A stretch of 64,000 nt of DNA from Desulfobacterales bacterium (lineage in GTDB: Bacteria; Desulfobacterota; Desulfobacteria; Desulfobacterales; UBA5852): positions 1,216,001 to 1,280,000 of the forward strand of contig CAXXVS010000002.1 in assembly GCA_963674755.2 (NCBI GenBank), read 5' to 3'. A program made the position numbers and the translations under genes. The notes under the pieces were generated by a model. That model did no database searches. It was not told where the DNA came from and saw only the letters and a program-made list of their open reading frames with translations. Of the stretch, positions 10,048-54,956 are shown one piece after another. Every line of letters starts with the position of its first letter. Position 1 is the stretch's first letter.

Positions 10048-10145
10048 GGAAGTGCGCAGCTACCTGGTGGGGCTCCCGGGCTTCAAACCCGGTGTGGGGC
10101 GTTAAAACCGTCCCGGGTGGGTTCGATTCCCATGCACTTCCGCCA
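10048..10145 (+). tRNA. selC: tRNA-Sec (anticodon TCA)
   Basis: 8-bp acceptor stem GGAAGTGC/GCACTTCC, anticodon arm CCGGG-CTTCAAA-CCCGG, long variable arm, T-loop GTTCGATTC and a GCCA end; 98 nt. Confidence 0.95.
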
Positions 10146-35222: not shown

Positions 35223-36130
35223 GTGAGAACGAGAAACATACGGTCAGGATGATCCCCCTGGACAGGATCAGGGTGCTCAACCCTCGGGACCGCAATAAAA
35301 AGCGGTTTCAGCTGATCGTCCAGAACATCGCCAATCTCGGCCTCAAAAGGCCTATCACCGTAAGTCCTGTAAAAGTCAAAAACGGTGAGCAGTGGTATAA
35401 TCTGGTCTGCGGCCAGGGGCGGGTTGAGGCCTATGTCGCCCTCGGCCAGGAGAAAATACCGGCGGTGGTGGTTGAGGTTTCCCGGGAGGAAGCCTTCCTT
35501 ATGAGCCTGGTGGAAAATCTCGCCAGAAAACAGCATGTCAACTTGGAGCTCGTAAAACAGATCGCCACCCTCAAGAATCGCGGCTACAAATCCAGCGAGA
35601 TCGCCAAAAAGATCGACATGAACCGGGAGTATGTGCGCGGAATCATAAGGCTCATCGATCGCGGCGAAGAACGCTTGATCAATGCTGTCGAGAAGGGGCA
35701 AATCCCGATCACGATCGCCGTTGAAATATCGGCGGCAAAGGACGAGGACGCTCAGCTGGCACTCCTGGAAGCATACGAGAAAAGCAAACTCAAGGGTAGC
35801 GCCCTAAAAAAGGCCCGACAGCTGATCGCGCAACGACGCAGCCAAGGGAAATCATTGCGGGCAGGCATCCCGATTTCAAAGAGGAAAGGGATCACAGCCC
35901 GGGAGGTCGTCAGAGCCTATCGCCAGGAGGTGGACCGTCAAAGCCAGCTTATAAAAAAGGCGAAATTGTGCGAGGCCAGACTGGTGTTCATCGTATCGGC
36001 CTTGACGGAGCTAATGGCGGACGAAAATTTCGTCAATCTTTTGCTGGCGGAATCGATCGACTCGATGCCCAAATACCTATCCGAACAAATCAAGGCCAAA
36101 AAGCAGGCAGTCTATGACCCGATCCGTTAA
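35219..36130 (+). CDS. ParB/RepB-like protein
   Basis: GLKRPITV, LVCGQGRVEA and SLVENLAR; ATGA overlap with the recombinase. Confidence 0.88.
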   Translation: MSENEKHTVRMIPLDRIRVLNPRDRNKKRFQLIVQNIANLGLKRPITVSPVKVKNGEQWYNLVCGQGRVEAYVALGQEKIPAVVVEVSREEAFLMSLVENLARKQHVNLELVKQIATLKNRGYKSSEIAKKIDMNREYVRGIIRLIDRGEERLINAVEKGQIPITIAVEISAAKDEDAQLALLEAYEKSKLKGSALKKARQLIAQRRSQGKSLRAGIPISKRKGITAREVVRAYRQEVDRQSQLIKKAKLCEARLVFIVSALTELMADENFVNLLLAESIDSMPKYLSEQIKAKKQAVYDPIR

Positions 36131-37001
36131 AATGGGTTTCGCCTCCGAGGCGGTGACGATTGCCATAGAGGACATCCTGCCGTTGAAGAAGGTAAAACCC
36201 GGGGTCAAAAAGTCTGTCAAATACAGACAGATTCAGACATCGATCCGCGAGGTGGGTGTCATCGAGCACCCTGTCGTCTACGCTGAGAAGGGCATGCCGG
36301 GCAAATACCTCCTCCTGGACGGCCATCTCAGGATCGAGGTCCTCAAGGAGCTGGGGACGACGGAGGTGATCTGTCTCCTTTCGACTGATGACGAGGCCTT
36401 TACCTATAATCACAAAATCTCCCGCCTTGCCACCATCCAGGAGCATTACATGATTCTGAAGGCGATCGAGAGGGGTGTCTCTGAGGAGCGCATTGCGGCA
36501 GTACTCGATGTGAACGTAGCCAGCATTCGGCAGAAGCGGGACCTCTTAAATGGCATTTCCAACGAAGCGGCCGAGCTCCTCAAGAACGCGCACATGAGCC
36601 CCAATGCCATTCGCATTTTGCGCAAGATGAAGCCGAGCCGTCAGGCTGAGGTCAGTGAGATCATGATTGCAGCCCATAATACCACAGTGTCTTTTGCCAA
36701 AGCACTTTTGGCGGCGACCCCTGCTGTGCAGCTTGTGGACAGTGAGCGAAAGAAGCAAGACATGGGGCTGTCGCCTGAAGAGATGGCGCGCATGGAAAAA
36801 GAAACCCAGATGCTGGCCCGGGATATCAAACTCGTAAAGGAAAGCTACGGTAGGGATACTTTGAACCTGGTACTGGCCTGCGGATATCTGTCGCGCATGC
36901 TGGAAAACGGGAAGGTCGTCCGGTTCCTTTCAAACCAGTATCCGGATATCCTGGCGGAGTTTCAAAAGATTATTGAAGCCTCTTCGTTGTCAAGCGCTTA
37001 G
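36114..37001 (+). CDS. Second ParB/RepB-like protein
   Basis: SIREVGVIEHPVV, LLDGHLR and DDEAFTYN; overlaps the previous gene. Confidence 0.88.
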   Translation: MTRSVKMGFASEAVTIAIEDILPLKKVKPGVKKSVKYRQIQTSIREVGVIEHPVVYAEKGMPGKYLLLDGHLRIEVLKELGTTEVICLLSTDDEAFTYNHKISRLATIQEHYMILKAIERGVSEERIAAVLDVNVASIRQKRDLLNGISNEAAELLKNAHMSPNAIRILRKMKPSRQAEVSEIMIAAHNTTVSFAKALLAATPAVQLVDSERKKQDMGLSPEEMARMEKETQMLARDIKLVKESYGRDTLNLVLACGYLSRMLENGKVVRFLSNQYPDILAEFQKIIEASSLSSA

Positions 37002-39057: not shown

Positions 39058-39653
39058 ACCGGACCTCCTTTCGCGCCTTCGGGCGCATCAACGCCCCCCC
39101 CCTGGAAGGCAGGTCCGGCGAAGGATCCTCCCAAGGGGCGTTACCCGGATAACCCGGGCGTTTCTTGCTGGGGGTGAAGGTCTCGCCGGACCTGCCAACC
39201 CTCATTGGCGAAATTTCGATGGATGGAGCCGGAAGCCCCGGTGCGCGAAGGCGGAAAGGCAAGATTTTCCTGAGATTTCGGTCGGATGTACACACTACGG
39301 TACGGAAACTTTTTTTGATTTTTTTTCCGATGGCCCAGCGAAATTTCTCTGAGTATACAGCTGCCACTAATCCCCTCAGTCAGAAGAAGTCACCAGGTCG
39401 TACTCAAACTGTTCACACACATTGTGTTGGCAACAGATCTTTGGCAAAGACCTGGCTCGTCAGCGGTTATCAGGAGAACGAGGCAGCGAATGACATATAG
39501 GAAGTAAAGGCAGACGGATGGCTAAAACGGTGACACCGGATGTCAGGAAGAATGCCAGAACAAAGCCATAGAGAGATTAGAAACAGCGAGCTGGCCAACG
39601 GCCCAAAACGGCAAGCACGCAAACCAAACAGGGGCAAAGAAAGGAGACAAGTT

Positions 39654-39872
39654 ATGAGCAACGATTTCAACTTCGGCGGCGGTATGCAGAACTTCGGGCG
39701 AGAGGTGCTGCGGGAACTGATTAAGACCGACTACGGTCCGGGGTGTTTGTTCAACGGCATCGCGGGACACGGGATGCAGGATCACCACGGTGGTACTCAT
39801 GATCAGGTCAACCTTTTCCAGGAGGGTGTCAAGGACAGCGGGATCGCTTTCCGGTTCTTCGAGAACAAGTAA
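39654..39872 (+). CDS. 72-aa Gly/His-rich small protein
   Basis: Strong SD AAAGGAG; MSNDFNFGGGMQNFG...GHGMQDHHGGTHDQ...; coding-like codon usage. Confidence 0.65.
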   Translation: MSNDFNFGGGMQNFGREVLRELIKTDYGPGCLFNGIAGHGMQDHHGGTHDQVNLFQEGVKDSGIAFRFFENK

Positions 39873-39942
39873 CCCGAAGTCCCCGTCCTGGTCACGACGG
39901 TTAAAAAAGACCCGAATTGTTAACCAAGCCGAAAGGCGGGCG

Positions 39943-40032
39943 AAGCCCCCGAATAGGTTCCCCGGAAAGGTTGAATCGGTTTGTCTTGCAAGACAACTCA
40001 GCCAATTCCGGCAGAGCCATTCGGGGGCTTTT
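39943..40032 (+). other. Long imperfect RNA hairpin with a U-tail (attenuator or ncRNA candidate)
   Basis: Nested stems AAGCCCCCGAAT/ATTCGGGGGCTT, GGTTC/GAGCC, CCGGAA/TTCCGG, GGTTGA/TCAGCC and TTGTCT/AGACAA. Confidence 0.55.
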
Positions 40033-40049
40033 CTATTTGGAGCGTGGAA

Positions 40050-40436
40050 ATGGGCAAAGCAAGCACAAGAAGGAAGAAGCGCAGGCAGGAATACCTGGGA
40101 CGCTTGGCGCGGAAGAATCCCAAGAAATTCAGGTCCGAGTGGGCGAAGCGCCTGGAAAGCTGGTCAGAAGAAGCCGGTCACCGCGCAAGTCGCCTGACAG
40201 ATCGGGACGGCAATCCTATCCCGCCGACGTTCACGCTAGTCGAAGATGCAATAAGCGAGCTTGTCGCATGCGGAGAGGAAGCCATTGAACTCGAGTCCGA
40301 GGCGACCAAGGACGTCATGAATGACGCCTGCTGCAAAGCGGTCGCTGAGGTTGTGGATAGTCGCATTTACCGGCTTAGCAGTGCGAGGTCGAACCAGCGG
40401 CGAATGGAGGAAGGCACTCACAAGCCTCCTAAGTGA
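40050..40436 (+). CDS. Hypothetical protein with a very basic N-terminus
   Basis: GGAG SD; MGKASTRRKKRRQEYLGRLARKNPKKF. Confidence 0.6.
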   Translation: MGKASTRRKKRRQEYLGRLARKNPKKFRSEWAKRLESWSEEAGHRASRLTDRDGNPIPPTFTLVEDAISELVACGEEAIELESEATKDVMNDACCKAVAEVVDSRIYRLSSARSNQRRMEEGTHKPPK

Positions 40437-40589
40437 TTGTCAACATTTGTCCGTATGCTTACACGCGTCCTGCCATCTATTCACTATAGCAAGGCATTTT
40501 GGGCAAACCACTTTTATAGGCGAGCAGGCCAACTATCCCCAGAAGGCAAGCCGCTTCAACAAATAAGGGGTAATCAAAGGAGAATAATT

Positions 40590-41084
40590 ATGAAAAAAAA
40601 ACTGTGGCGAAAAGTCAAATCGTTGGACTCATCTTCCGAAGGGTCCTTCAGCGACATGAAGCAGTTGATCGGTAATGGACGGGATTTCTCATATGCTCAT
40701 CGGCTCGCGTGTGAGGAGGGCCCTTGGCATCACGCCTATGCGAATTCGATCCTTCTCAATTCGCTCTTCAAGGGCATTTGCATGATCGCGGATCAACTAG
40801 GGGGTTCCATCACTCCATACGATGGAGAAGTGGCCGAGGTTCAGATGCATCGTCCTCATCACCACCGGCATCTTGGTGGAGATGGTGTCTATCCGGTCGA
40901 TCTTCCCGTACGCTTGATTCTTAGTCTAGCAGAAGGAGATGAGCAGCGTGTCGAGGAGATGATTGAGGCTCTTTCAGAAGGAGCTCCTCATCACGTGATG
41001 GCCAATATCATGATGATGCACATGGCAGAAGCTCTCGTGGAATTGGTCTCAAGGAACAACGCCGTCGATAAGGCAGGAGCATAG
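40590..41084 (+). CDS. His-rich hypothetical protein with a duplicated HH motif
   Basis: AAAGGAG SD; EEGPWHHAYAN and SEGAPHHVMAN, with linker HRPHHHRH. Confidence 0.7.
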   Translation: MKKKLWRKVKSLDSSSEGSFSDMKQLIGNGRDFSYAHRLACEEGPWHHAYANSILLNSLFKGICMIADQLGGSITPYDGEVAEVQMHRPHHHRHLGGDGVYPVDLPVRLILSLAEGDEQRVEEMIEALSEGAPHHVMANIMMMHMAEALVELVSRNNAVDKAGA

Positions 41085-41088
41085 AATT

Positions 41089-41799
41089 ATGAAAACAGCC
41101 TCAATCCAGATATGTGACCAAAAGGCCATCACCAGGGCATACACTATGCTCTCAGTAGAAATGGGACATGTTGCAGCAGCCACAGCGATATACGAACAGC
41201 TTCTGGCACACTATGGAGCGGATAATGCCCGCTGGTTTCTGCAAAGGAATGGGCGGGCATTTCCCGTTCTATCGGCCATGGCATATGAAGTCGGTACGCA
41301 AAGGATCGACAAGCGCATTCGGGGTATCAATGAACTTTTGGCATCGTTTCTTGAACACAAAACCGACATCGTTTGCATCGGTGCTGAAACAGCATGGTTG
41401 GACATCGCCACTACCACATACACAGACAAGTCGTTTCACATCGTTCCCCATTCCAATGATGCGGACCTTGACAGGCTTCTTTCGAATTTCGGGGAAAACG
41501 TTCGGATACACGATTCCGTTGATCTTACCCGTCTGTATGGCACCACAAGCGTTATCGTAACTTTCGCCTTCAACGTCACCGAACACTCTTTTTTTACCTA
41601 TCCTGCCGCGTATCGTGTCTGTGGATTGGATACGCGACAGGCTTTTTCCGAGCTTATTGCACTTGACCTGATTGACAGTCCCCTGCGGTTTCATCCCCCC
41701 GACCTTGTCGAGATGGATACTGATGAAATGACCTGCGTTCTCTCGCGAGCGCTTGAATCTACAAGGAGGTCCCGAGTATGGACGTTAGCGGCATTCTAA
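41089..41799 (+). CDS. Hypothetical alpha/beta protein
   Basis: 236 aa, 4 bp after the previous stop, overlapping the next gene. Confidence 0.7.
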   Translation: MKTASIQICDQKAITRAYTMLSVEMGHVAAATAIYEQLLAHYGADNARWFLQRNGRAFPVLSAMAYEVGTQRIDKRIRGINELLASFLEHKTDIVCIGAETAWLDIATTTYTDKSFHIVPHSNDADLDRLLSNFGENVRIHDSVDLTRLYGTTSVIVTFAFNVTEHSFFTYPAAYRVCGLDTRQAFSELIALDLIDSPLRFHPPDLVEMDTDEMTCVLSRALESTRRSRVWTLAAF

Positions 41800-43166
41800 T
41801 CATCTTGTGTGTCTTCAGCACGCTGCTTATGCAGGCAGCCCTCCCGGCACGGCGTGTTTCTATCGTCATTATCGGTGCTGCAATCAGCACGGTTATAGTA
41901 GTTCTCAGCGGACGGAGCACCATGGAAGGAGTATATCGAAGTATTCACTGGGACGTATTGCTGATACTGGTCGGGCTCGGTCTCTATACCTCCATACTTG
42001 CCCGAAGTAATGTTTTCGGGGTTACTGCTGCAAAGGCAACGAACATGACTCGGGGTATTGGGTGGATAGTGTTGGGTGCGTTCTCTATAATCATGTTTAC
42101 CGTCAGTGCTTTTCTCAACAACATAACTGCCATATGTCTGATGTTGCCGGTATTCCTGGTTGTTCTCCAGTCTCTGGGGATCACCCAGGGGTACCTCGGT
42201 CTCTTCATGGCGCTGATCCTTACTGCGACAAACCTCGGGGGCGCAGCCAGCCCCATTGGCGATTTTCCTGCCATATTACTTATCAGTGACAAAGCTACAC
42301 AGATGACCTTCGGCAAGTACCTGGTAGCGGCAGCCCCAGCTTGCGTGGTAATCGTGGTATTCGTCGTTGCGGCTTATCTGTTGATATATGCCAGGAAACA
42401 TCGAATAGATGCTACTCCGTTATCCAAGTCCGTATCGGTAACGGTTTCTCAGCTACTCTACCGTAACGTCTCTATTAATTGGAAAATCATGGTTCCAGGC
42501 AGCCTAATCTTCGCAGCAATGGTTGTTTTGTGGGCTTTTTCACCTCCAGGATGGAACATGACTCCTGATTTGGTCTGCCTTGCAGGAGTGTCAGTCTTGA
42601 TGGCTTTTTCGCACTTCATTAGGCCACCTCGTAATTTTGAACAAGCCGGTTTGCCTTTCGTGGAAAGCATTATAAAGCGTGAGACCGATGTGGAATCATT
42701 GTTGTTCCTGGGAGGACTGTTCTTCATGGTTTCGGCTGCTGAGAGCACAGGAATGTTGAAGGCCATTGGCAATCAGCTGCTTGCCCTTTCTGACCAACCA
42801 TTGCTCTGTGTCTCGGTACTCATGCTTATGTCAGGATTATCCACAGCAGTATTCAGCGCCGGTCCTGCGATGGGTGCAATGCTTCCCATCGCGAAGCAAA
42901 TAGCTCCTCTCTATCCCGAAGGGACGGTATACATCGGACTCGCATTGAGTGTGTGTGCTGGATCGAGTTTTCTATTAACAGCCGCCACTTCAGGTCCGTT
43001 GACGCAGACCATTATTGAACGATTTAATTTCTCAACATCTGATGAAAATCCTGGTCGGTTCAATTTTTGGACATTCCTTCCATATGGTTTCCTTTCCTAC
43101 TGCATCATTCAATTGTCCGCTCTGTTATGGATGTTGCTACAACTTTATAAGGGAGGTGTACTGTGA
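41778..43166 (+). CDS. ArsB/NhaD/CitMHS (ion transporter superfamily) permease
   Basis: About 12 TM segments; SAFLNNIT and ATNLGGAASPIGDFPAIL. Confidence 0.85.
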   Translation: MDVSGILIILCVFSTLLMQAALPARRVSIVIIGAAISTVIVVLSGRSTMEGVYRSIHWDVLLILVGLGLYTSILARSNVFGVTAAKATNMTRGIGWIVLGAFSIIMFTVSAFLNNITAICLMLPVFLVVLQSLGITQGYLGLFMALILTATNLGGAASPIGDFPAILLISDKATQMTFGKYLVAAAPACVVIVVFVVAAYLLIYARKHRIDATPLSKSVSVTVSQLLYRNVSINWKIMVPGSLIFAAMVVLWAFSPPGWNMTPDLVCLAGVSVLMAFSHFIRPPRNFEQAGLPFVESIIKRETDVESLLFLGGLFFMVSAAESTGMLKAIGNQLLALSDQPLLCVSVLMLMSGLSTAVFSAGPAMGAMLPIAKQIAPLYPEGTVYIGLALSVCAGSSFLLTAATSGPLTQTIIERFNFSTSDENPGRFNFWTFLPYGFLSYCIIQLSALLWMLLQLYKGGVL

Positions 43167-44947
43167 TCCTTAAGACGGTCGTAAGCATAGCCAACACGGC
43201 GCTTATGGTTGTTAGAGCACTTGAGCGCAGGCAAAAGAGAGCTCTACTAATAGCTTTCCTAATTATGCTCATAACGGGAACCTTGACGAATGTACCCGCG
43301 GTCGTCCTTGGCTATATAGTTGACAAGCTTGTTGGCTCTGAAACTGTACCATTTGAAATGGCGGCTCCTTACCTGCTTGTGATTGTGGCGGCAATCTTGG
43401 CGCGGGAAGCAATGGTTGTCCTCCGGAAATACCTCGTCGAGAATACTTGCACACGGATAGAGAAAATTCGGCTTGTGCGGCTTGTGGACCATATGCTTCG
43501 TCTAGAAATGGACTATTACTCATCTGTCCATGTCGGTGCTCTTAATGGGAGAATTCATCGAAGCATAGAAGGACTAGTACGCATCATCAAACTTCTGTTT
43601 TTGGATCTTTTCCCCACTGGAATAGCAGCCTTGGTCGCCGTCGCTATCGCTATCGTTAAACTGCCCCTGCTCGGAGGCATTATGGCGTTGGCAATCCCTG
43701 TCGGTTTTTTAGTCGTTTTATGGCAGATAAGAAGTCAAGAAGGAATTCGCATCGCTTTACTAAGGGACAAGGAAGCCATAGATGGGAAAGTCGTTGAACT
43801 TCTCTCAGGCATTGAAAGTGTTCGGGCGGCCAACACCGAAACCCACGAAACAAATAGGGTCGATGTTCTTGTCGAAAACCTGCGCAAGAAAGAAATTCGT
43901 CATCACATATCAATGGCTCTATTCGACTGCGTGAAATACCTGAATGAAGGAGCCTTCCATATCGCTGTGATCGCCACCTCTGTCTATCTTGCCACACGCG
44001 GTATTATTTCCACTGGGGATGTTCTGACCTACTCTTTGCTCTTTATTAGCGCAGTGACGCCTCTTCGAGAGATACACAGGATTCTTGATGAAGCCCACGA
44101 AAGCAGTCTTCGTGTCCGCGATTTGCACGATCTCTGTGGCCAGCCCATTGATGACGCATATTCTATAAAATCTTTGACAAGTTCAGAAAATGCACCTTGC
44201 GATATCGCTCCGGCTATCAAAATAGACCGAGTATCGTATAGCTACGGTAATTGCTTGGATGCTCAGCAAAGTATGGTACTGGAGGGAGTTGATCTTGAAG
44301 TTAATCGGGGAGAGGTACTCGGCGTTGCAGGTCCTTCTGGGTGCGGGAAATCCACACTGTTGAAACTTATGCTGGGTCTCTATCATGTTACCGATGGCCG
44401 TATTTCACTGGATGGCAGCCCGATTGAAGCTTTGTCACGTGAGCAGATTGCTAACAAAATCGGATATGTTTCTCAGTTTCCATTCATGTTTGCAGGGACG
44501 ATCCGGGAAAATGTCGCATACGGCTGTAATGAAGTGAGTGAAGAGGATGTATATGAGGCATGTCGGAGAGCGTGCATTCATGATGAAATCATCCGATCCC
44601 TGGGAGGATATAACGGGATCGTCGCCGAAAGAGGTCAGAATCTTAGTGGCGGTCAGCGTCAGCGTCTGGCCATAGCCAGAATTATCCTGCGTAGACCGAG
44701 TATAGTCTTGCTCGACGAGGCGACAGCTGCACTTGACAATATAAACGAAATGGAGGTTCAAAAAGGCCTCGAAGAACTCATGCAGGGCAGAACAGTTATC
44801 GTTGTGGCACATCGCCTGACGACACTACGAAATGCCAACCGGATTCTTGTCCTTAATCAGGGGCATGTCGAAGAAACCGGTACGTATTCTGACCTTCAGA
44901 GTGGAAAGGGATTGTTTGCTGAGTTGGAACACGCTGTCGCCGAATAG
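43163..44947 (+). CDS. ABC exporter, fused permease and ATPase
   Basis: TM domain plus GPSGCGKST, LSGGQRQR, LLDEAT and AHR; GTGA overlap with the previous gene. Confidence 0.93.
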   Translation: MILKTVVSIANTALMVVRALERRQKRALLIAFLIMLITGTLTNVPAVVLGYIVDKLVGSETVPFEMAAPYLLVIVAAILAREAMVVLRKYLVENTCTRIEKIRLVRLVDHMLRLEMDYYSSVHVGALNGRIHRSIEGLVRIIKLLFLDLFPTGIAALVAVAIAIVKLPLLGGIMALAIPVGFLVVLWQIRSQEGIRIALLRDKEAIDGKVVELLSGIESVRAANTETHETNRVDVLVENLRKKEIRHHISMALFDCVKYLNEGAFHIAVIATSVYLATRGIISTGDVLTYSLLFISAVTPLREIHRILDEAHESSLRVRDLHDLCGQPIDDAYSIKSLTSSENAPCDIAPAIKIDRVSYSYGNCLDAQQSMVLEGVDLEVNRGEVLGVAGPSGCGKSTLLKLMLGLYHVTDGRISLDGSPIEALSREQIANKIGYVSQFPFMFAGTIRENVAYGCNEVSEEDVYEACRRACIHDEIIRSLGGYNGIVAERGQNLSGGQRQRLAIARIILRRPSIVLLDEATAALDNINEMEVQKGLEELMQGRTVIVVAHRLTTLRNANRILVLNQGHVEETGTYSDLQSGKGLFAELEHAVAE

Positions 44948-45990: not shown

Positions 45991-46729
45991 CGTGGGATGA
46001 ACGACATTGGTCAGTAACCGTTGGAGCCCGTCTGGTATCGCTCGAGAACGATGTCACCTGCACCCACTAAGGTCGCCGTTCTCACTGCTGCACCTACTGG
46101 CTGGTGATCAACCTGTAACCGCCCCCCCCTGATCCGGCTTCCGGTTGATACCTACCGGAGGAGGGTGTTTGATTTCGGCGCAAAGGTTTCTGGGAACCAG
46201 GCTTTTAAATTGTCGTATTTAAAAAGGCGAATGTTAGAATCAGGAAAGGTCACTTGCGAATACCGAGTCTGAACCTCCACTGTTGCATCGTAACCCCAAT
46301 CTGAGAGCATAGAAACGCAGAATCGGGATGGATGTGCCCTTCGGCGTAAGTCGGCGAAGACTTGGCAGGAATGGCATGACCCCGTGGGGATCAAACCACG
46401 GGGTCTTGTGTTAAATAAGAACCGCTTAATTCAGCGAATTATTTTTTGGCTCCCCGTGTGCAACCCTCTTCATAACCGTTCTCTTTCTCCTTCAGTTAAC
46501 CGAAAACCTTCAATATCATTCGGTTATCAAAGATCAGGCTTCCGCCGGTGAAGCGGAAGCGGCGTTGAGCCACATTTCCTCTGCATCCGTATCCTCCGCG
46601 AGCAGCCGGTTCCAATTACATGTCAGACCAACTCCAAGACGTCTTCGAGCAAAAGCCTTCGGCCAAATTGCCTTCCACGATATTGATCCAGTAGCGAATG
46701 AACCCTCTGGCCTAAGGTTCTGTTTATGG

Positions 46730-47608
46730 CTAAAGCTCCGAGTGATCAAACGCTTTCCAATTTGCACGATTATCATACACGTCTGATCCTGAGGAGCATA
46801 TATTGATTTCCTCTTGCGATAAATCCAGCATTCCACGAGCGCCGTTGGCAAAAACCACGCGTCTTTTGAGGCACCGATTAGGGCTTTCAACAGCTGAGCT
46901 TAATAGTTCGGATCTTTCAGGATCTTCCTTTTTCCATCGTTCAATCAAATGGCTCGCAACCCGCGGAATGACAAACCCAATATCTTCCTCACGAAATTCC
47001 CATATTCTCGTTTCTAAATCGGAGCCTTCCTCAATTCCCCCCCCTCCTTCATCCATAAATAACCATTCAAATTGAGTTCCATCTTTGTTTTGACGCTCAA
47101 GGCCCTCAAATTTTATATTTAAAAATTCAACAATCCTCTCAACCTTCTTTTTTGAAACGCTTGCTTTTTTGGCTATTTGTGAAATGTCTGGCTTTCCGTC
47201 TTCCCGGTTTTCAAGCGTACCTATTTTTGATAAGTCGTCCATGGCCTTGACAACCGTAGAGGCATTCTTTCTTAACTCCGATGGCAAACCTATCAGCGAC
47301 CAGTACTCGATACGAATTGCACTCTTAATAAACTCTGTTGCATATGTCATTAGACGATTGCCTCGCGATGGTTCAAACGTTTCATACGCCCGGAGGAGGC
47401 CTTGATTAGCGGCTATCACAAGGTCGTCGAATATTTCTTGTCCCGCCGTCTTACCCTTTAAATATTTACCCACTAATTTCCTGATTTGTCGTTGAAGCTT
47501 CTTCCATAACTCTTCCCGTGCATAAGAATCTCCTGCCTTTGCGCGGGAAATCAGTTGAATTTCCTCTTCAAGAGAATAATTGTCATTCTTTTTAGGCGAG
47601 TCAGACAT
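46730..47608 (-). CDS. Divergent sigma-70-family RNA polymerase sigma factor
   Basis: EEEIQLISRAKAGDSYAREEL; region 2 DLVIAANQGLLRAYETFEPSRGNRLMTYATEFIKSAI; region 3 PDISQIAKKASVSKKKV. Region 4 not recognisable. Confidence 0.8.
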   Translation of the reverse strand: MSDSPKKNDNYSLEEEIQLISRAKAGDSYAREELWKKLQRQIRKLVGKYLKGKTAGQEIFDDLVIAANQGLLRAYETFEPSRGNRLMTYATEFIKSAIRIEYWSLIGLPSELRKNASTVVKAMDDLSKIGTLENREDGKPDISQIAKKASVSKKKVERIVEFLNIKFEGLERQNKDGTQFEWLFMDEGGGGIEEGSDLETRIWEFREEDIGFVIPRVASHLIERWKKEDPERSELLSSAVESPNRCLKRRVVFANGARGMLDLSQEEINICSSGSDVYDNRANWKAFDHSEL

Positions 47609-47610
47609 CT

Positions 47611-49044
47611 TTAGCACTCCACCGTTGTATCTGGCCCAAATAGGAATAGCCTCGCTGGTTCATAAGATTTCCATCGCTCAAGGCGTGCTTCGGGGTCTGG
47701 GCCGAATTCGATGTCCTTATCCATAACAATCCCTTGCAATATCTGACGTTCTCCAATTGTCATAACCGAGCCGTCTAATACATCCTTGGGTTGAAAATGC
47801 AAATTCTCCCTCAACCATTTACGCCAGCTCCCATCTATTTTATTTGCCCTGAGTTTTGCATCATCAAGGTGCCACGGTAAGGGAAACGGGCCGGATGGAA
47901 TAGGATAGAATAAAAGGAGAATATCGTCTTCTTCGAGCGTCGGATATAGAGACTGAGTCCTTGATTTACCATCTCGTGTTACGCTTCTCATACCAGTCGC
48001 ATCGATGAACAGGAGTTGCCGTTTGAGCAGCCTTCGTATCAAAAACAGAGCAGCCCAACGCCGCACAGCTTTTTCTTCCTGGGTACAGCTATACTTTCTT
48101 ATCTCGGACACCACCTTAGAGGTGCATTCATATGCTTTGTTGTTCTTGTTGCGGCTACGATTAGTCTCCTTCAGGCCAAATTTGGGTTTAAGGGATATAT
48201 ATTCCTCCTTTGATTGATCTTCTAAATGTAAATTCGAAAACATAGCATGTTCATCCATCAAGACATCGTTGTTATAGGTAGACCATATCACCTTTGCTAT
48301 ATTCTCCGCAGCAATAAAATTTTCGTGACCGATCTTTGTTTTTAATAGGCCCTCGGCCCATTCTTTGGGGTCACTGTCATTGAAGAAGAAAAGACCGTTG
48401 ATAGGGAGCGTCCTAAAGCCATGCGGTGATTTAATTCGTATGTTAACATCGCAACTACCATCCAATATTTCAAATAAATCAGCCGGTGGAATAACGAGGT
48501 GCCCCTCTTCGTATAGAGTTTCAATTCTGGTTTGCAGGTGTGGTAGCCCAACACGCAGAATATTTTCCCACGAACGTTCCAGTCCACCAAGGTTTTGCTC
48601 AAAGCGCGCACCAACAAAAGGTTCAGATAGGGTGTGAAGAGTTATGACTCCTGGTTCCCTACTCAAGCTCTCCAAATAGGCAGTAGTTGGAACTAGGGCA
48701 CTCGGATGCCGATGGGTAAGGCATGAGTATAGAGAAGATATAATTAGCCCATTGAAGTTCTTACTATCACTCTGAGGCGATTCATCCCCTGGGAATCTTG
48801 ATAAATCGTAGTCTGTCACCAAGATTTCACATGGTAAAATAGACGTGTCTTTTTTAAACCAAAAGTCCTTTAGATGTGGGACGAAGTTTGTCGCAGTCGG
48901 AAACATGAAGTCCGCTGCATATGGTCCTTGGCTTGTCGGTCGGGGATCAACGATTTCAAAAGTATTTCGGAACTTATCTGGCAATTCGCTCTCTGGAAAT
49001 CCCTCGTGTTGGTCGCTGATCCAAAGAATGCGTACTTTATTCAT
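47611..49044 (-). CDS. Divergent response-regulator receiver plus an unknown C-terminal domain
   Basis: ILWISDQ, ILVTDYDL (putative phosphoacceptor Asp), FNGLII and ALVPTTAY; overlaps the upstream gene by 8 bp. Confidence 0.6.
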   Translation of the reverse strand: MNKVRILWISDQHEGFPESELPDKFRNTFEIVDPRPTSQGPYAADFMFPTATNFVPHLKDFWFKKDTSILPCEILVTDYDLSRFPGDESPQSDSKNFNGLIISSLYSCLTHRHPSALVPTTAYLESLSREPGVITLHTLSEPFVGARFEQNLGGLERSWENILRVGLPHLQTRIETLYEEGHLVIPPADLFEILDGSCDVNIRIKSPHGFRTLPINGLFFFNDSDPKEWAEGLLKTKIGHENFIAAENIAKVIWSTYNNDVLMDEHAMFSNLHLEDQSKEEYISLKPKFGLKETNRSRNKNNKAYECTSKVVSEIRKYSCTQEEKAVRRWAALFLIRRLLKRQLLFIDATGMRSVTRDGKSRTQSLYPTLEEDDILLLFYPIPSGPFPLPWHLDDAKLRANKIDGSWRKWLRENLHFQPKDVLDGSVMTIGERQILQGIVMDKDIEFGPDPEARLERWKSYEPARLFLFGPDTTVEC

Positions 49045-51292
49045 TAAAATCCCCCATACTTATGCCTCTAATCCATAAGGCAGTCTCGAACCAAAATCCA
49101 CCCCCTTGAGTAACAGGAAGAATGCGATAAAATAAATCTCCTATCTCCACACCACGAATTGTATCAATTGCCAATCCAGGCCCGCTGTGAACAATGTTTT
49201 CCGGCCACTTCTTCCAGATGTCGGTTCGAGCCAGGTAACCATTTGAAGATTTGCCCGCTATAACCTCATCTTTCAGAAGGCCCCTTTGTAATGGCGGTGA
49301 ATCAATATAGTTTCGAAATATTAGAACAGGAATACTTTCATTATCGATTTCTATAGTGTCTCCAGAAACTTCAACTATCTTAATCAATTTACGATACTTA
49401 CCTTGCCGACCCTCCTCCTTTGTAATATGTCCGTGCTTTGCAATATTCCTAAACAACTCTGTAACGATGGACGTAATCATGCATTGGCGAACCAGCCAAT
49501 ATTGGTTATTTTCCTTAAAGGTTCGGATCGTTATAGGTGTACGACATAAAAATTCCAATTGTACTTCAATGAAATAGTCGTCTAAGATTCCGTCGTGATC
49601 GAGATACCTAACTCCTGAAGCAAGCATACGGCATCTCTCTAATATTACCTTTATTTCCTTTCTCGAGGCACTATCATTTGTATTTAGTAGAAATTTATTT
49701 ACCTTATCATTATTAAGCAATTCTTGAAGACTATCAAAGATCGATGCCTGCAATAGTGTTAAATGGTCTTTAAGAAAAAAAGTGGCATTTTCAGCCATCT
49801 GTTCTGCAACATCCTTAGTCTTATCTTCACGTTTTTGAAAATATTTTGCTATTTCCCCAAGTGTTGTACCAAGAGAATGTCCGAGGTGTACAATAGCGCT
49901 TTCTTTGGATCGTACTCTGGCCCAAATATGTGCGTCGGTACGTTTCCGGATCTCGTCCATCATTTTAGCGATTTTTGTCGGAGAGTCATCCGGTCCGGTA
50001 AACGGAGATGGGTACATTGCTTCGATTAGAGTCTTAAAATAGTCGTTCTTTCGAAGGTTTGGATTGGTTACTACCATAGATCTGAAGTAACTGTAGATTA
50101 GAAGGTCTAGGGCAAAGGAGTATCGGGCGAAGGCTTTCCAGAGGGGCCTATACCACACCACGTTCTCGATGCAAGGGGTCAGGATGTAAAGGATAGACAT
50201 ATTTCCGTTGAGGCCTGGCCTTCTGACATAAAAGACCGTGAATCCCCTCTTGTATTGAACACTGTCATTTAAAAGAGTCGGAAAATGTCGCTCGCAACTT
50301 GTTTTAACAGATATCTCGCTGGCTCTGTCCCAATCGGCCTCATAATGCAGGATGCCTTCATTGTCGTGAATTTCATCCGAGAGCAGCATCTGGGTAATAG
50401 CAGACGAGTCTATATCGTATTCGAATTTAAGTACCGGTTCGGCATCCTCGTCCGGCTTTGCACTGAAGGTCGCGAATATCGTCGCCACTCTATTGACGCA
50501 ATCGGATAATATCAGACCTGTAAATCCTTTTATTCTTTTGTCGTCGCTAATAAAACTCTTTTTTTCCTCAGGCGGGAAGCTTTTTACGAATGTATCATCA
50601 AAGATATCAAGAAAATGCCAAACTTGCTTGTAGAGCCGCTTGTTGAGATCGAGGTTCTGGTCCTCAAGGCGTTTAGGTGGAACCGGCTTAAAAATGTAAC
50701 CGTCGCGCTTTGAGTAGCCATATCGATGGGCCTCACGTGGGGCAAGGTACTGCTCGCGCAATTTCATAAAAACAAACGCGTGAGACCCTTCCCCCCAGAA
50801 GTCATCCAATCGGTGCGTGAAGCGATATCCTCGACTTTCGTGAAACCTATGAGATTCTAACCAGTTACAACCGAGTATCTCTTTACCATCTTCATTCGCG
50901 ATCCTTGTGTCTTCCGTACAGCTCATGCCCATAATTCTGTATACCTGACAATCTCCTTCAAACAGGTCTTTTTCAAAAAAGTCATACAGTTCCTCCATCG
51001 ACTTTCTATGCCTTGGGCGGCAGCCGACCCAAAGTAATTCAGCTTGTCGGCAGCTAATGACTGCGACACAAAAAGCATCGATTATGTATCGATCATTAAA
51101 ATACCCATAAAAACGATGGAGTTTCGCATCTTCAGGAATTATATCACGTGCTGTTTCAGGAAAGAAATATTTGGAACGTTTCAACCCGATCTCCGTGACC
51201 TGACGCATGTAATCATTCCATCGCTTAAGCCCATCCGCAGTTTGAGCCAAGTTAACATAGGAGATGTAATTGCACCCGGGCTTTAGAGTCAT
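49037..51292 (-). CDS. GNAT domain fused to a divergent histidine kinase-like module
   Basis: GNAT-like AELLWVGCRPRHRK and SHRFHESRGY...DDFWGEGSHAFVFMK; H-box-like HLGHSLGT; N-box IVTELFRNIAKHG; G2-like SGPGLAI. Confidence 0.6.
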   Translation of the reverse strand: MTLKPGCNYISYVNLAQTADGLKRWNDYMRQVTEIGLKRSKYFFPETARDIIPEDAKLHRFYGYFNDRYIIDAFCVAVISCRQAELLWVGCRPRHRKSMEELYDFFEKDLFEGDCQVYRIMGMSCTEDTRIANEDGKEILGCNWLESHRFHESRGYRFTHRLDDFWGEGSHAFVFMKLREQYLAPREAHRYGYSKRDGYIFKPVPPKRLEDQNLDLNKRLYKQVWHFLDIFDDTFVKSFPPEEKKSFISDDKRIKGFTGLILSDCVNRVATIFATFSAKPDEDAEPVLKFEYDIDSSAITQMLLSDEIHDNEGILHYEADWDRASEISVKTSCERHFPTLLNDSVQYKRGFTVFYVRRPGLNGNMSILYILTPCIENVVWYRPLWKAFARYSFALDLLIYSYFRSMVVTNPNLRKNDYFKTLIEAMYPSPFTGPDDSPTKIAKMMDEIRKRTDAHIWARVRSKESAIVHLGHSLGTTLGEIAKYFQKREDKTKDVAEQMAENATFFLKDHLTLLQASIFDSLQELLNNDKVNKFLLNTNDSASRKEIKVILERCRMLASGVRYLDHDGILDDYFIEVQLEFLCRTPITIRTFKENNQYWLVRQCMITSIVTELFRNIAKHGHITKEEGRQGKYRKLIKIVEVSGDTIEIDNESIPVLIFRNYIDSPPLQRGLLKDEVIAGKSSNGYLARTDIWKKWPENIVHSGPGLAIDTIRGVEIGDLFYRILPVTQGGGFWFETALWIRGISMGDFNE

Positions 51293-52755
51293 CTTATGTT
51301 CCGTTTTGAGATTAAGGCCGGCAGGGATAGAATGATTAATACGACCATGCCAGAGACCAGCGCGGTTACCGGTGCATTATACAACCAGTTCGACGAGCCG
51401 CTGAATTTTCCATAGAGAGCGCTGGCCCATCCCCCAAAAAATCCGACCAAAATCGATGCTCCAGCGGCTAAACGTGCTTGCGGAAGCGCAATCCTGCGAG
51501 CAAAAAACAGTGAAAAAAAGACGGCAGGGAACATGGCCAGCTGTGCCCCATAAATGGCGAAAACCAGCTGAACGACATCGAACTGCAGAAAATGCAGTGC
51601 TGTAAAGACAATGAACGAAACAACAGCAATGAGCGCCATCGCAGTGCGAGCCTTGCGCATAACTGGTTGGGGGTCAGCGCTATCGGGATTCAATTTCATG
51701 ATATCGATTGAAAAAATCTGGCCCGTAACGATGAGTAGACTGTCTGCTGTGGATATCATGGCACTGAAAAGGCCGAGCACGAACAGGAAAAGGAGAATGA
51801 TGAACAATGGTCCGGAAGTCGAGAACACTTCCATGATATAGTTAATCAAGGGCTTTTGAGAAGCGTTAAAGCCCTGAGAAGCGGCAACCCTCCAGTAGTA
51901 ACAGGCAAACAGGATGATAAAGGCCCACAATGCCGCGAAGGACGGGGCAATCTGAAGAAGACCCCTTTTAGCGGTATGGATGTCCTTAGTCGAACAAAGG
52001 CGCTGCCAGGTTCCTGCATCGCTGATGGGTGCAGGCAGATTCATGACTGCCACTCCTATGATGAAGGGCCAGGCCGGGACCCATGACTTAGCCATCGAGG
52101 ACAGGATCATCGGGATATTGATGTCAGGAGCACGTTGGGTGTGAACGACAGCTAGCATAAACAGAGAGAAAAGCCCGATGATGATGAATCTCAGCTGCCA
52201 GCGGTCCGTGGCTACAATTGCCCTATAGCCACTCATTAGCGAGTAAATGATGATGAAAACCAGGTAGACCAACGCGAAGGCCAGCACCTTCTCTCCGAGG
52301 AATGGCTGGAGCACGGTGACACCGACAAGCAGCTCCATGCTGAAGATGCTGATATAGCCGATCAGAGAAAAGAACAGCGCGATATATTTAACACTGGAGC
52401 TGTCATAGCTCTTGCCAAGATAGGCCTGAATCGTGTCATTCTGGGGATTTGCTTCCATGATTCGATTTGCACAGAGGTACAGCAAAAGGAAACTGAGAGA
52501 ATACGAGACAACACAAACGAAAAGTGTGATGCCCATCAGTGGCGCAAAGTTTATAAAAGCGATGATCACTGTTGCCAGAGACATTCCCGCTGCAATTGTA
52601 GTGGAACGGTATTGTCCAGTTGAAATCAAACGTTTTAGAGGAAAGAAATCTCGAATATTCAGGATTTTTTTGCGCTCGCGTAAAGCTACGGAGAAATAGA
52701 GGATGGCTGGCAGCAACACTGCTGCGAATACTGCGATATAAGCAAATGCATTCAT
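51289..52755 (-). CDS. Sodium:solute symporter (SSS) family transporter
   Basis: About 13 TM segments; YSLMSGYRAIVATDRWQ, WQRLCS and FSAMISTADS; ATGA overlap with the next gene. Confidence 0.85.
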   Translation of the reverse strand: MNAFAYIAVFAAVLLPAILYFSVALRERKKILNIRDFFPLKRLISTGQYRSTTIAAGMSLATVIIAFINFAPLMGITLFVCVVSYSLSFLLLYLCANRIMEANPQNDTIQAYLGKSYDSSSVKYIALFFSLIGYISIFSMELLVGVTVLQPFLGEKVLAFALVYLVFIIIYSLMSGYRAIVATDRWQLRFIIIGLFSLFMLAVVHTQRAPDINIPMILSSMAKSWVPAWPFIIGVAVMNLPAPISDAGTWQRLCSTKDIHTAKRGLLQIAPSFAALWAFIILFACYYWRVAASQGFNASQKPLINYIMEVFSTSGPLFIILLFLFVLGLFSAMISTADSLLIVTGQIFSIDIMKLNPDSADPQPVMRKARTAMALIAVVSFIVFTALHFLQFDVVQLVFAIYGAQLAMFPAVFFSLFFARRIALPQARLAAGASILVGFFGGWASALYGKFSGSSNWLYNAPVTALVSGMVVLIILSLPALISKRNIR

Positions 52756-52769
52756 TCTTCTATATCTCC

Positions 52770-53513
52770 TTAACTGTCATTGTCATCCAGCTGAGCATAA
52801 GACTTTCCACTGTCAAGAAGCACAGCTACAGATATTTGAGTGCGATCACTGAAGTTGTATGGGAAACCTTTATAACGAGCGGAAGCTATTTTCTGTAAAA
52901 TCTTCATGTCGCGCCCAGGATAGATTTCTGTCATAAAGCCCTTTTGGTATAACGCAAGGAAAACGGCAATCTCCTCGATAATGTATTCGCGGAGCCTGTT
53001 CTTTTTCACGTCTGTTATGTTCTCAAATGACTTATGGGACAGGCGAGTTGTGCTATCGAGCATCAGCGCTATCTGTTGCTCCATATCTTCATTGAAGCAT
53101 TGATTTTTCGATGCAAAATCCCGAATCGCAGATAGGATCTTTTGGCCTTCGGAAGTTTCTATTACATGTCGACTGGATTCCACTCTAACGTTACCGATAG
53201 CGTTATAATCCTTAAGCACTGCCTTGATGTTGTTTACTATTTTTTGCCCTCGTCGTCCAGTTTTCACTTCAGACTTATCTTCGGTTAAATCTTCAAAAAC
53301 CATTAAATTGTGTCTTTCCATGTAATCGCCGATGATGATCCTTGGTTTTTCGCAGTTTGATATCACCCAGGGGATATACTCCCAGAGAAAAGGTTTGTTC
53401 TCCATAAATGAATACAAGCATATAGGGATGAAACACGAAGGCGTCGGCTGCGGACTTAAAAAATTGTCCACGTTGGGGCCGCGCGTCTCAGAGTGGTTGA
53501 TTTCAATTGGCAT
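52770..53513 (-). CDS. tRNA-dependent cyclodipeptide synthase (CDPS)-like protein, XYP-type
   Basis: 247 aa; CFIPICLYS (GxSxxN-equivalent strand), IIIGDYMERHN, EYIIEEIA (YxxxE) and IYPG; AAGGA SD before ATG 53513. Confidence 0.7.
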   Translation of the reverse strand: MPIEINHSETRGPNVDNFLSPQPTPSCFIPICLYSFMENKPFLWEYIPWVISNCEKPRIIIGDYMERHNLMVFEDLTEDKSEVKTGRRGQKIVNNIKAVLKDYNAIGNVRVESSRHVIETSEGQKILSAIRDFASKNQCFNEDMEQQIALMLDSTTRLSHKSFENITDVKKNRLREYIIEEIAVFLALYQKGFMTEIYPGRDMKILQKIASARYKGFPYNFSDRTQISVAVLLDSGKSYAQLDDNDS

Positions 53514-53667
53514 TAGAATCCTTTTTAATAAAGTCGCTTTTACCCTCATCAAGAACTGAAAAGCTGATGTTCTTTGTCATTATTTGACTCGCCCCATGCA
53601 AAATTCCCTTCAGCTTTAGCCAGGGTAGCTTTGCTAAGTTTTTCATGACCACAGTCTTAAGGGCCGT

Positions 53668-53834
53668 TGATAAACTCTGACAAAAATCAAATCTCGAACC
53701 CTCCATAGGTTTTTATGGGGCAGGCCGATGCTGCATCCTGACAACCACTGACAAACCCTGTCCCGGAAACCCCGCAAAGGTTCCTTAAATATAAATGACC
53801 TTGCCAACCTTGGCATCCTGACAACCGCTGACAA
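53668..53834. repeat. Three TGAYAA-N4-TGACAA boxes
   Basis: At 53668-53683, 53739-53754 and 53819-53834. The last two lie in a 22-bp direct repeat GCATCCTGACAACC(A/G)CTGACAA. Confidence 0.75.
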
Positions 53835-53952
53835 GATCGGCTGGAATAGGTCGGTTGCAAGACGATAGAATCACAACCCACTGAAATACAAAAAAAATTC
53901 CCGACAAGACAAGCGGGAACCACGTCTGAAAAGGGGAGTCTCTATGGGGCTT

Positions 53953-54717
53953 TCAAGATGGTTGACAATATGCGAGAATGATGGCCACCTCCACGCCATG
54001 AAAAAGAGCGCACTTAACAACAGCTGAAGTTGTGCATTTCTGCGGATCACGCGCAAAGAGCAACACAGCAGCATTCGTGAGTTTGCCGTCCTCAAGTATC
54101 TTCAGGTGGGTCAGTGTCTCTTCAGGCGAAGCCGCTGTTGACAGGTTGAGGTTTCGCTCCTGACGGGCGGTTTTCAAAAACCACTTAATCTTGTCGGGCG
54201 AGACATCGCTTAGAGAGGTACCAGAGCACGCGGCCGCATCGAAGGGCTTGCTCTGGATGATTCCTCGGTCCTCTAAATACTCGATGAGACTGTCATAGAC
54301 GAGTGATGTAAGGTCTGCAGGGTTGTAAAAACGCCGATATGTCAGTTGGTTCTTTGCTTTTGTGGTCAGCTCCGCCATCTTTGGATGCTGCTTTTCCCTA
54401 CCCAGCTGCTTCAAGAATACCAATCGGTGTTTCGACAGCTCCGTTGCAAGATCGAACTCACGCTCAGTCGGAGAAATACCATCCTTTGGGTCCTCCCAAC
54501 CATACTCTTTTGCAAACACGGCCAGGAAAATGGCGCATTGGTCTACCTTGTCGAGATACAGATTGTCGGGTCGACGATCTTTGGCTGGCAGATCTTCAAA
54601 CAGAAACACATTGAAATGCCGGGACAAGAGGCGATTGCCCATTATGAAATCACGAAGGGCTTTGCGCTCGTCGGATAGTTCCTTCTGTACGCTGCTGATG
54701 AAGATCAATTCCTTCAT
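53953..54717 (-). pseudogene. DUF4062-domain protein, probably C-terminally truncated
   Basis: IFISSVQKELSDER, SPTEREF and LTNAAVLLF...VKCALFHG, then an abrupt end. Such proteins normally continue into an HATPase-like region. Confidence 0.65.
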
Positions 54718-54956
54718 GATTGTCCTCGATGTTCCTGAGACCTCACCTCACCATCGAGCAGGTCCAAGTCTTTCCGAGCTTTCTTTAAAATCAGGGCTGC
54801 GCATTCCATACAATAATTGTTTTTCGCCATGTTTTCTTTAATTACCAAGCACTTGTCGCCTTTGCATATCACGTGCCCCTTGTTGCGGGAGCATTGCCGC
54901 CGTCGCTGGGCGGTTTCGAAACAGGCGGATACGAGAAGGCGTTTAAGCTTGGGCAT
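54714..54956 (-). CDS. Small Cys-rich hypothetical protein
   Basis: AAGGAG SD; CSRNKGHVICKGDKC...YCMEC; 3 bp after the helicase stop and ATGA-coupled to DUF4062. Confidence 0.65.
   Translation of the reverse strand: MPKLKRLLVSACFETAQRRRQCSRNKGHVICKGDKCLVIKENMAKNNYCMECAALILKKARKDLDLLDGEVRSQEHRGQS

Follow-up and report, generated by a model that had tools for sequence, protein, structure and literature searches.

Gene content and conservation of the operon

The window analysed here is a 64,000-nucleotide stretch of a Desulfobacterales genome (assembly GCA_963674755.2, contig CAXXVS010000002.1, positions 1,216,001 to 1,280,000). The subject of this work is a five-gene operon on its minus strand, which joins a cyclodipeptide synthase (CDPS)-like enzyme and a sodium:solute symporter (SSS) to a histidine kinase, a response regulator, and a sigma factor. 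In the order of the operon, the genes are:

52770–53513, minus strand: CDPS-like gene (247 amino acids), first gene of the operon
51289–52755, minus strand: SSS symporter gene (488 amino acids), second gene
49037–51292, minus strand: GNAT–GAF-like–histidine kinase gene (751 amino acids), third gene
47611–49044, minus strand: response regulator gene (477 amino acids), fourth gene
46730–47608, minus strand: sigma-70-family gene (292 amino acids), fifth gene, with an ATG start and an in-frame GTG at 47617

The original prediction, made from the sequence alone, had described five co-directional genes with minimal spacing and with lower GC content than the core genes. Both statements were borne out. 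The five open reading frames (ORFs) all lie on the minus strand. The first two are 14 bp apart, the next two junctions overlap by 4 and 8 bp, and 2 bp separate the last two. The GC content of the operon is 0.42–0.49, compared to 0.579 for the genome, and the GC content at third codon positions is 0.40–0.56, compared to 0.70–0.73 in five core genes. The region 46461–54873 is covered by one 8413-bp contig of run X1 with zero differences, X1 being possibly the assembly's own source.

When genome contigs were searched with the CDPS alignment, 50 candidate stretches led to three loci. In L003 (Ca. Thiodiazotropha), the five genes have the same order as in the window, in L004 (Desulfatiglans), the CDPS gene is relocated behind the sigma gene, and L005 (Victivallales) has no sigma gene and a different receiver C-terminus. 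All three carry the SSS, kinase, and receiver genes, and two of them also the sigma gene (L023 is a duplicate of L004 and was counted once). The search of metagenomes with the SSS alignment gave 303 candidates and five loci, each with a CDPS gene; L008 and L009 are complete, and both L007 and L010 are cut short inside the cassette. Altogether, all five genes stand together in four further loci (L003, L004, L008, and L009), as had been expected of a genuine unit, L005 has four of them, and the fragments at contig ends, L007 and L010, keep the first two or three. Because the same genes recur together in other loci, their grouping is not due to chance, and the five-gene operon is almost certainly a real conserved unit. 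Between the window and L003/L004, the CDPS and SSS proteins are 67–83% identical, and the kinase, receiver, and sigma proteins 22–37%. The SSS protein is the most conserved component, with 62–88% identity across the loci of the subfamily.

Cysteine replaces the catalytic serine in the CDPS-like enzyme

The CDPS-like enzyme matched TIGR04539 with an E-value of 1.4e-8 and 34.5 bits, which is under the cut-off of 45, and its homologue P0019 scored above this cut-off (49 bits). A profile of 19 CDPS sequences gave 12 matches to solved structures with E ≤1.3e-4, of which 11 are labelled CDPS and the best is 9gun (E 4e-18). These matches to solved CDPSs sustain the earlier assignment of the first ORF to the CDPS family. 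The residues of the XYP-type motif (Y177, E181, and Y198-P199, the equivalents of Y178, E182, and Y202-P203 in AlbC) are invariant in the CDPS alignment.

The position of the catalytic Ser (AlbC S37) is occupied by Cys32, and Cys was found in 17/17 homologues covering this column, which aligns with the Ser of the solved CDPSs 5ocd and 9j61. Judged by the catalytic Ser, the window enzyme falls outside the canonical CDPSs. The Ser is retained in the CDPSs of L006 and L011, in the second CDPS of L005, and in P0122 and P0187. According to an excerpted study of AlbC, the S37A variant is inactive, and S37C keeps some activity and forms a covalent intermediate (PMC3105412). Because AlbC S37C still forms this intermediate, a thioester mechanism via Cys32 is plausible. 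One CDPS family survey, in its excerpted text, discarded sequences without the Ser (PMC5816076). No paper on a natural Cys CDPS was found in a full-text literature search, most subscription papers lying outside its scope. The homologues indicate a clade of Cys-nucleophile CDPSs, which Ser-filtered surveys would have dropped.

The second, Ser-type CDPS of L005 lies together with a convergent stand-alone GNAT gene (L005:15991–17327) beside the four genes of that locus, with QueA-like and radical SAM genes upstream. At L011:8740–10909, a distant Ser-type CDPS gene is immediately followed by a distant SSS gene, and no signalling genes were found at this locus.

The symporter and the soluble sensor kinase

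The SSS protein matched PF00474 with 30.4 bits (gathering cut-off 22.8), and its hydropathy is that of a polytopic membrane protein. It may act as the importer of the CDPS product. The kinase is soluble, as its hydropathy profile contains no 19-residue hydrophobic window above 1.6 (maximum 1.41). This lack of a transmembrane segment fits sensing after import. Residues 4–180 of the kinase model have a GNAT fold (Z 17.7, root-mean-square deviation 1.9, 145 aligned residues), whose nearest folds include the protein N-acetyltransferases RimI and Ard1. A putative GAF-like domain follows (~205–425), for which PDB sequence searches gave nothing meaningful. [quoted passage not shown] The kinase half resembles HK853 (E 0.005), and the whole kinase model matched bacteriophytochrome, WalK, and a LOV kinase in Foldseek. 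His472 and the N-box residues E612 and N616 are each conserved in 57/57 aligned kinase rows.

When 1.84 billion representatives were searched with a profile, 193 matches were obtained; the list comprised the best 150, and 67 were scanned against Pfam. Among these best 150 of 193, three further CDPS–GNAT fusions carry the same GNAT at the C-terminus, and the GNAT–GAF-like front end precedes either the atypical kinase or other C-termini (P0057–59, P0061–62). The front end is also fused directly to the output domain of the receiver (P0110, P0120), this GNAT also forms the N-terminus of APH-kinase proteins (P0131, P0144), and one protein (P0060) is a natural kinase–receiver fusion. The window GNAT is also homologous to the GNAT of the CDPS–GNAT fusion in L006 (96%, E 1.3e-9). 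In at least 7 proteins, the kinase half is combined with radical SAM-SPASM domains, and in at least 4 with methylases. By these fusions, the sensor front end swaps outputs. Proteins P0060–P0195 form a broad atypical histidine-kinase family, with no Pfam or NCBIfam kinase match among those scanned. With at least 57 members aligned, this histidine-kinase family goes unrecognised as kinases by Pfam and NCBIfam.

The response regulator and the sigma factor

Residues 1–180 of the response regulator have a receiver fold (Z 8.3, root-mean-square deviation 2.8, 123 aligned residues), and receivers fill the match list. D11 and D78 are conserved in 19/19 rows, and T/S121 in 19/19 rows with residues at this position. 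The model of the whole protein has a pLDDT of 82.6, and its C-terminal helical output domain is confidently modelled. This output domain matched no known family in Pfam, PDB sequence, or Atlas searches, and no LytTR match was obtained, which points to a new domain. We infer that it binds DNA.

In the sigma factor, regions 1.2, 2, and 3 are recognisable. PF04542 (region 2) was detected in 5/5 sigma factors of the system, and a region-4 family in none of these five at E up to 1, although a highly diverged region 4 may still be present. The profile match of the window sigma to three host sigma factors spans residues 24–159 only, and the protein carries its own conserved C-terminal segment. No homology was found between this segment and the receiver output domain, and a region-4 profile matched neither of them. 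A frameshift in the sigma gene, raised by the overlapping ORF 46534–46890, was ruled out, as the C-terminus aligns with those of L009 and L008.

Co-folding of the sigma factor with the receiver gave a score of 0.58, compared to 0.01 for the best control, which supports their interaction weakly. The mark used was reached by 116/157 solved pairs and 2/215 mismatched pairs, and scores ≤0.60 include only 18/157 solved pairs and both of the passing mismatches. The runs agreed in at least 0% of contacts, with a partner pLDDT of at least 59.

A promoter-like direct-repeat motif precedes the synthase gene

Comparison of upstream DNA gave the motif TTGTCAG-N3-TTGTCAGGA, a direct repeat with a 10-bp period, followed by CAT(A/T) 17–20 bp downstream. 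In the window, it is found at three places:

53816–53834, minus strand: distal repeat TTGTCAG-N3-TTGTCAGGA, with CATTTATA 18 bp later at ~53790–53797; putative operator at −35 and −10 element
53736–53754, minus strand: proximal repeat, with CATAAAAA 18 bp later at ~53710–53717; second putative promoter, with the CDPS start 241 bp downstream
39457–39502, plus strand: third, weaker full copy, repeat and CATATAGGA, upstream of the gene run at 39.6–44.9 kb; candidate target promoter

The two copies upstream of the operon compare with 0.01 expected in shuffles. In the genome, three strict copies were found (0.09 expected), and none at 8 other spacings. The 39457 site is one of three genome sites with a core score ≥12 plus CATA, where ~1.1 are expected.

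The motif lies upstream of the CDPS gene in 6/6 loci that have upstream DNA and have, or possibly have, receiver plus sigma. There are two copies in the window, three in L003, one in L004, two in L007, two in L008 (plus one divergent), and one in L010; L009 has no upstream DNA and stands outside this count. The three copies in L003 are the only exact matches in that genome, and the L004 copy lies inside the 83-bp sigma–CDPS gap, the CDPS gene having moved to the end. When one locus at a time was left out, the chance of the motif was 3e-5 to 3e-4 per 400 bp. L022, which was not in the first matrix and has no CDPS, carries two copies before its kinase–receiver–sigma operon. In L005, which has no sigma gene and a different output, in L006, whose output is of the Ser/Thr type, and in L011, with CDPS and SSS only, no strong copy was found (best scores ≤15.0). 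CAT(A/T) stands at 17–20 bp in 10/14 sites of the system, compared to 0/7 background sites from 359 other genomes.

This arrangement matches a −35/−10 promoter with a head-to-tail dimer site over the −35. Because the motif tracks the receiver/sigma pair and precedes the synthase, the cassette probably activates itself through it. The output domain is the likelier reader of the repeat, because it is also fused directly to the sensor; the C-terminal segment of the sigma factor may read it instead. Elsewhere, the full promoter pattern had one match in viral contigs, in a phage record without a system gene, which was taken as chance, and one motif match in G349 is unrelated to the system.

The candidate target operon at 39457–44947 contains small His-rich ORFs, a CitMHS/MamN-like transporter, and an ABC exporter, with a weak second repeat at 40437. 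The divergent copy in L008 faces membrane and coiled-coil ORFs (L008:635–3211), which form a second candidate target.

Two modules, their distribution, and the genomic island

At L006:1523–7766, a parallel system combines a Ser-type CDPS–GNAT fusion, an APH/TCAD9-like kinase, a PP2C phosphatase, and an SSS protein 88% identical to that of the window. At L022:1320–17400, the kinase, receiver, and sigma genes lie in a cluster of radical SAM, methyltransferase, U32, and deaminase genes without a CDPS gene, and an ABC importer and a binding protein beside the biosynthetic enzymes stand in the place of the SSS protein. Because the fusions, L006, and L022 show the parts recombined, the cassette is, as far as these arrangements tell, a meeting of two modules: a make-and-import module (CDPS, GNAT, and SSS) and a reusable chassis of kinase, receiver, and sigma. 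In L003, divergent genes encoding a lysine-aminomutase-like radical SAM enzyme, a VTT-domain protein, and an unassigned 460-amino-acid protein were also observed (L003:2594–6453), adjoined by an integrase.

A search of 12 congeneric genomes did not find the cassette. The CDPS protein search found one other genome among 400 of the class, and the kinase profile one genome among 400 of the class and one among 400 of the phylum. The Pfam CDPS model found none of 401 phylum genomes, the own genome included, so that this search was uninformative. No match to the cassette was obtained in plasmid and phage collections, and 0/156 candidate stretches were retained when viral contigs were searched with the receiver alignment. 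By its distribution and setting, the system is rare, mobile, and cross-phylum.

The left bound of the island that carries the operon lies in the window:

10048–10145, plus strand: tRNA-SeC, left attachment site of the ~68.5-kb island

The right bound is a 32-bp tRNA-SeC repeat next to an integrase, on the same contig beyond the window (G000:C2:1294641–1294672). The cargo comprises the integrase, a D5-like primase, DarT, an Hma-like methylase/ATPase, an SNF2 helicase, a type II restriction enzyme, and insertion sequence elements, and a serine recombinase with two RepB/ParB-like genes (33648–37001) adds a further mobility module to the island. In one other study, two soil metagenome runs contain pieces ~99% identical across the five genes and nothing over 40.9–45.9 kb, which indicates that the operon moves as a cassette. 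Among the 17 single-gene differences listed, 11 are synonymous, and 224 more differences stand outside this list. In run X3, a single contig joins 50650 to 56894, a 6243-bp deletion of the CDPS gene, the SSS gene, the kinase start, and two upstream genes. The non-coding segment 46264–46580, which recurs with 81–84% identity in two other genomes and where many contigs have loose ends, is likely a repeated element at the left edge of the cassette.

The claim that the operon is flanked by broken genes could be followed in part: one soil contig leaves the window at 53987, inside the upstream DUF4062 ORF (53953–54717), for which the analysis had no full-length relative to compare. The small ORFs downstream of the operon had no family match in Pfam/NCBIfam-type profile scans. 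One further feature lies there:

46538–46560, minus strand: terminator-like hairpin 3′ of the sigma gene, of a kind no more frequent in the region than expected by chance

Scans of the region for sigma-70 promoters and terminators were likewise not above shuffles, and the Rfam scan gave weak snoRNA noise only.

Interpretation of the cassette

We consider the cassette to be an autoinduction circuit, with a probability of about 50%, in which the product is re-imported, sensed in the cytoplasm, and amplified by positive feedback via the receiver and the sigma factor. The CDPS-like enzyme would form a (cyclo)dipeptide from aminoacyl-tRNAs via the Cys thioester, and the GNAT may acylate this product. 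The product would leave by diffusion or through a host exporter and be re-imported by the SSS symporter. The soluble kinase would bind it via the GNAT/GAF-like front end, autophosphorylate on His472, and pass the phosphate to Asp78 of the receiver. The receiver output domain would then act on the tandem TGTCAG repeat at −35, jointly with the apparently region-4-less sigma factor reading the CATA −10 element, and the output would drive the cassette itself and one or a few neighbouring island operons. That the sensed molecule is the enzyme's own product seems slightly better than an even bet. The original prediction had proposed a circuit of making, transporting, sensing, and responding. This proposal is partly supported: all domain calls and the co-occurrence held, and the motif before the synthase, which tracks the receiver/sigma pair, speaks for it independently. 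The cyclodipeptide product, its carriage by the SSS symporter, and its sensing by the kinase are putative parts of the circuit.

Several observations weigh against this circuit. Cyclodipeptide synthesis is not assured, the catalytic Ser being Cys, and the SSS protein of L006, 88% identical to that of the window, is paired with a Ser-type CDPS of 25% identity. The cassette has no conserved exporter. The signalling half diverges faster than the CDPS and SSS proteins (22–37% versus 67–83% identity), whereas a specific signal–receptor pair would be expected to diverge together. On the sensor side, the acetyl-CoA motif of GNAT proteins, R/QxxGxG/A, was present in 0/10 members of the window's GNAT clade compared to 5/6 of the next clade (P0051–P0056), and the Atlas value of 0.85–0.86 for the GAF-like domain is a lead only. 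The atypical HATPase lacks the G1 DxGxG motif and has Asn661 in 55/57 rows, with a register of ± one residue. In the receiver, Arg157 is found in 19/20 rows and Lys in 1/20, where Lys is expected, the equivalence being deduced from position. A DNA-binding fold was not found in the output domain by sequence and Atlas searches. As for the promoter, CAT(A/T) is missing at the sites in L004 and L010 and at both of those in L022, the −10 element was picked after the sites had been seen, and the sites are not independent. Finally, autoregulation by itself does not reveal the input.

The strongest competitor, which we regard as doubtful, is a regulated biosynthetic cassette: the SSS symporter imports an external cue or precursor, the kinase, receiver, and sigma factor switch on the CDPS, and the product acts elsewhere, as an antagonist, a chelator, or a signal to host or neighbour. 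The radical-SAM/methylase cluster of L022 speaks for it, since it uses the same trio and motif without a CDPS, as do the kinase fusions to radical SAM-SPASM or methylase domains and the much faster divergence of the signalling half compared to synthase and transporter. However, the GNAT shuttles between CDPS and sensor, which ties the sensor to the CDPS pathway, and conserved genes for tailoring or export are lacking.

A conflict or stress alarm, in which the enzyme reports aminoacyl-tRNA status or phage attack via a second messenger serving as a warning to the cell itself or to its neighbours, is unlikely. The island also holds DarT, Hma-like, and restriction genes, and the variant kinase of L006 has a sub-threshold TCAD9 match. 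Against this, islands gather unrelated cargo, the neighbours in L003, L004, L008, and L022 are non-defence genes, and no effector gene is conserved. PADLOC-DB 2.0 gave 0 families for the CDPS, SSS, kinase, and receiver proteins, and the sigma factor matched only region 2 of MzaA, weakly (E 3.6e-4). The phage sensor raised earlier as an alternative thus found little support. It is improbable that the Cys enzyme, instead of cyclising, transfers aminoacyl or acyl groups, forming a linear N-acyl (di)peptide together with the GNAT or modifying a protein such as the kinase or the sigma factor, so that the circuit would in part be a protein-modification switch: Cys is invariant in the window clade and Ser kept in the GNAT-fused CDPSs, and RimI and Ard1 are among the nearest folds of the GNAT, but the equivalents of the AlbC cyclisation residues Y178, E182, and Y202 are all retained, and a dedicated transporter implies a small molecule.

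The autoinduction circuit can be extended to a more specific proposal, which is tentative. The cassette would be a dedicated CDPS quorum-sensing circuit with a Cys-thioester CDPS making the autoinducer, SSS import, unannotated enzyme-fused soluble kinases, and a two-part, phosphorylation-gated sigma factor whose −35 recognition is supplied by the regulator. The chassis would be a general plug-in for CDPS, radical SAM, and methylase modules on mobile islands.

Comparison with known systems

The architecture had been put forward as undescribed, and the full-text search, with the scope given above, found no account of it. SSS transporters, N-acetyltransferases, and PAS domains have each singly been noted near CDPS genes, and quorum sensing has been suggested, in excerpts of three papers (PMC4159871, PMC5767969, PMC2922099). 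A CDPS cluster with a dedicated kinase, receiver, sigma factor, and promoter appears in none of the excerpts of these papers or of the two on CDPS catalysis and family membership (PMC3105412, PMC5816076). The in vivo role of CDPS products is described as largely open in the excerpted texts, and signalling has been suggested there without a dedicated receptor (PMC4159871, PMC5767969). The 7-kb cassette unites synthase, importer, receptor, regulator, sigma factor, and predicted promoter, so that this question becomes directly testable by a reporter.

With the XYP CDPSs (TIGR04539, PF16715; PDB 9gun, 5ocd, 9j61), the window enzyme shares the profile and the YxxxE and Y-P motifs, and it differs by Cys for the conserved Ser.

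In agr and ComCDE, a single autoregulated operon encodes signal synthesis, a histidine kinase, and a response regulator, tandem direct repeats lie at its promoter, and AgrC-type kinases have Asn at G1. The window operon resembles them in this combination of genes, in the Asn of its kinase, and in the predicted direct-repeat operator before the synthase. In contrast to agr and ComCDE, no ribosomal precursor peptide was seen, the kinase is soluble and not membrane-bound, an importer and a dedicated sigma factor are present, and the output domain has no LytTR or other Pfam match. RRNPP/Opp and Lsr combine an importer with a cytoplasmic receptor, and so does the window, where the importer is of the SSS family and the receptor is a GNAT–GAF-like histidine kinase instead of a TPR protein or repressor.

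Among split or region-4-less sigma factors, SigO-RsoA of B. subtilis and gp55 of T4 rely on a partner for upstream recognition. The window sigma, with region 2 and no detectable region 4, would need one as well, but its proposed partner is a phosphorylated response regulator. This would be a possible new mode of promoter recognition and could serve as an orthogonal expression part. Taken together, the folds are known, the arrangement was found to be undescribed, and the sequence evidence points to self-regulation. The cassette would work like an import-and-sense quorum circuit while being a member of no such family.

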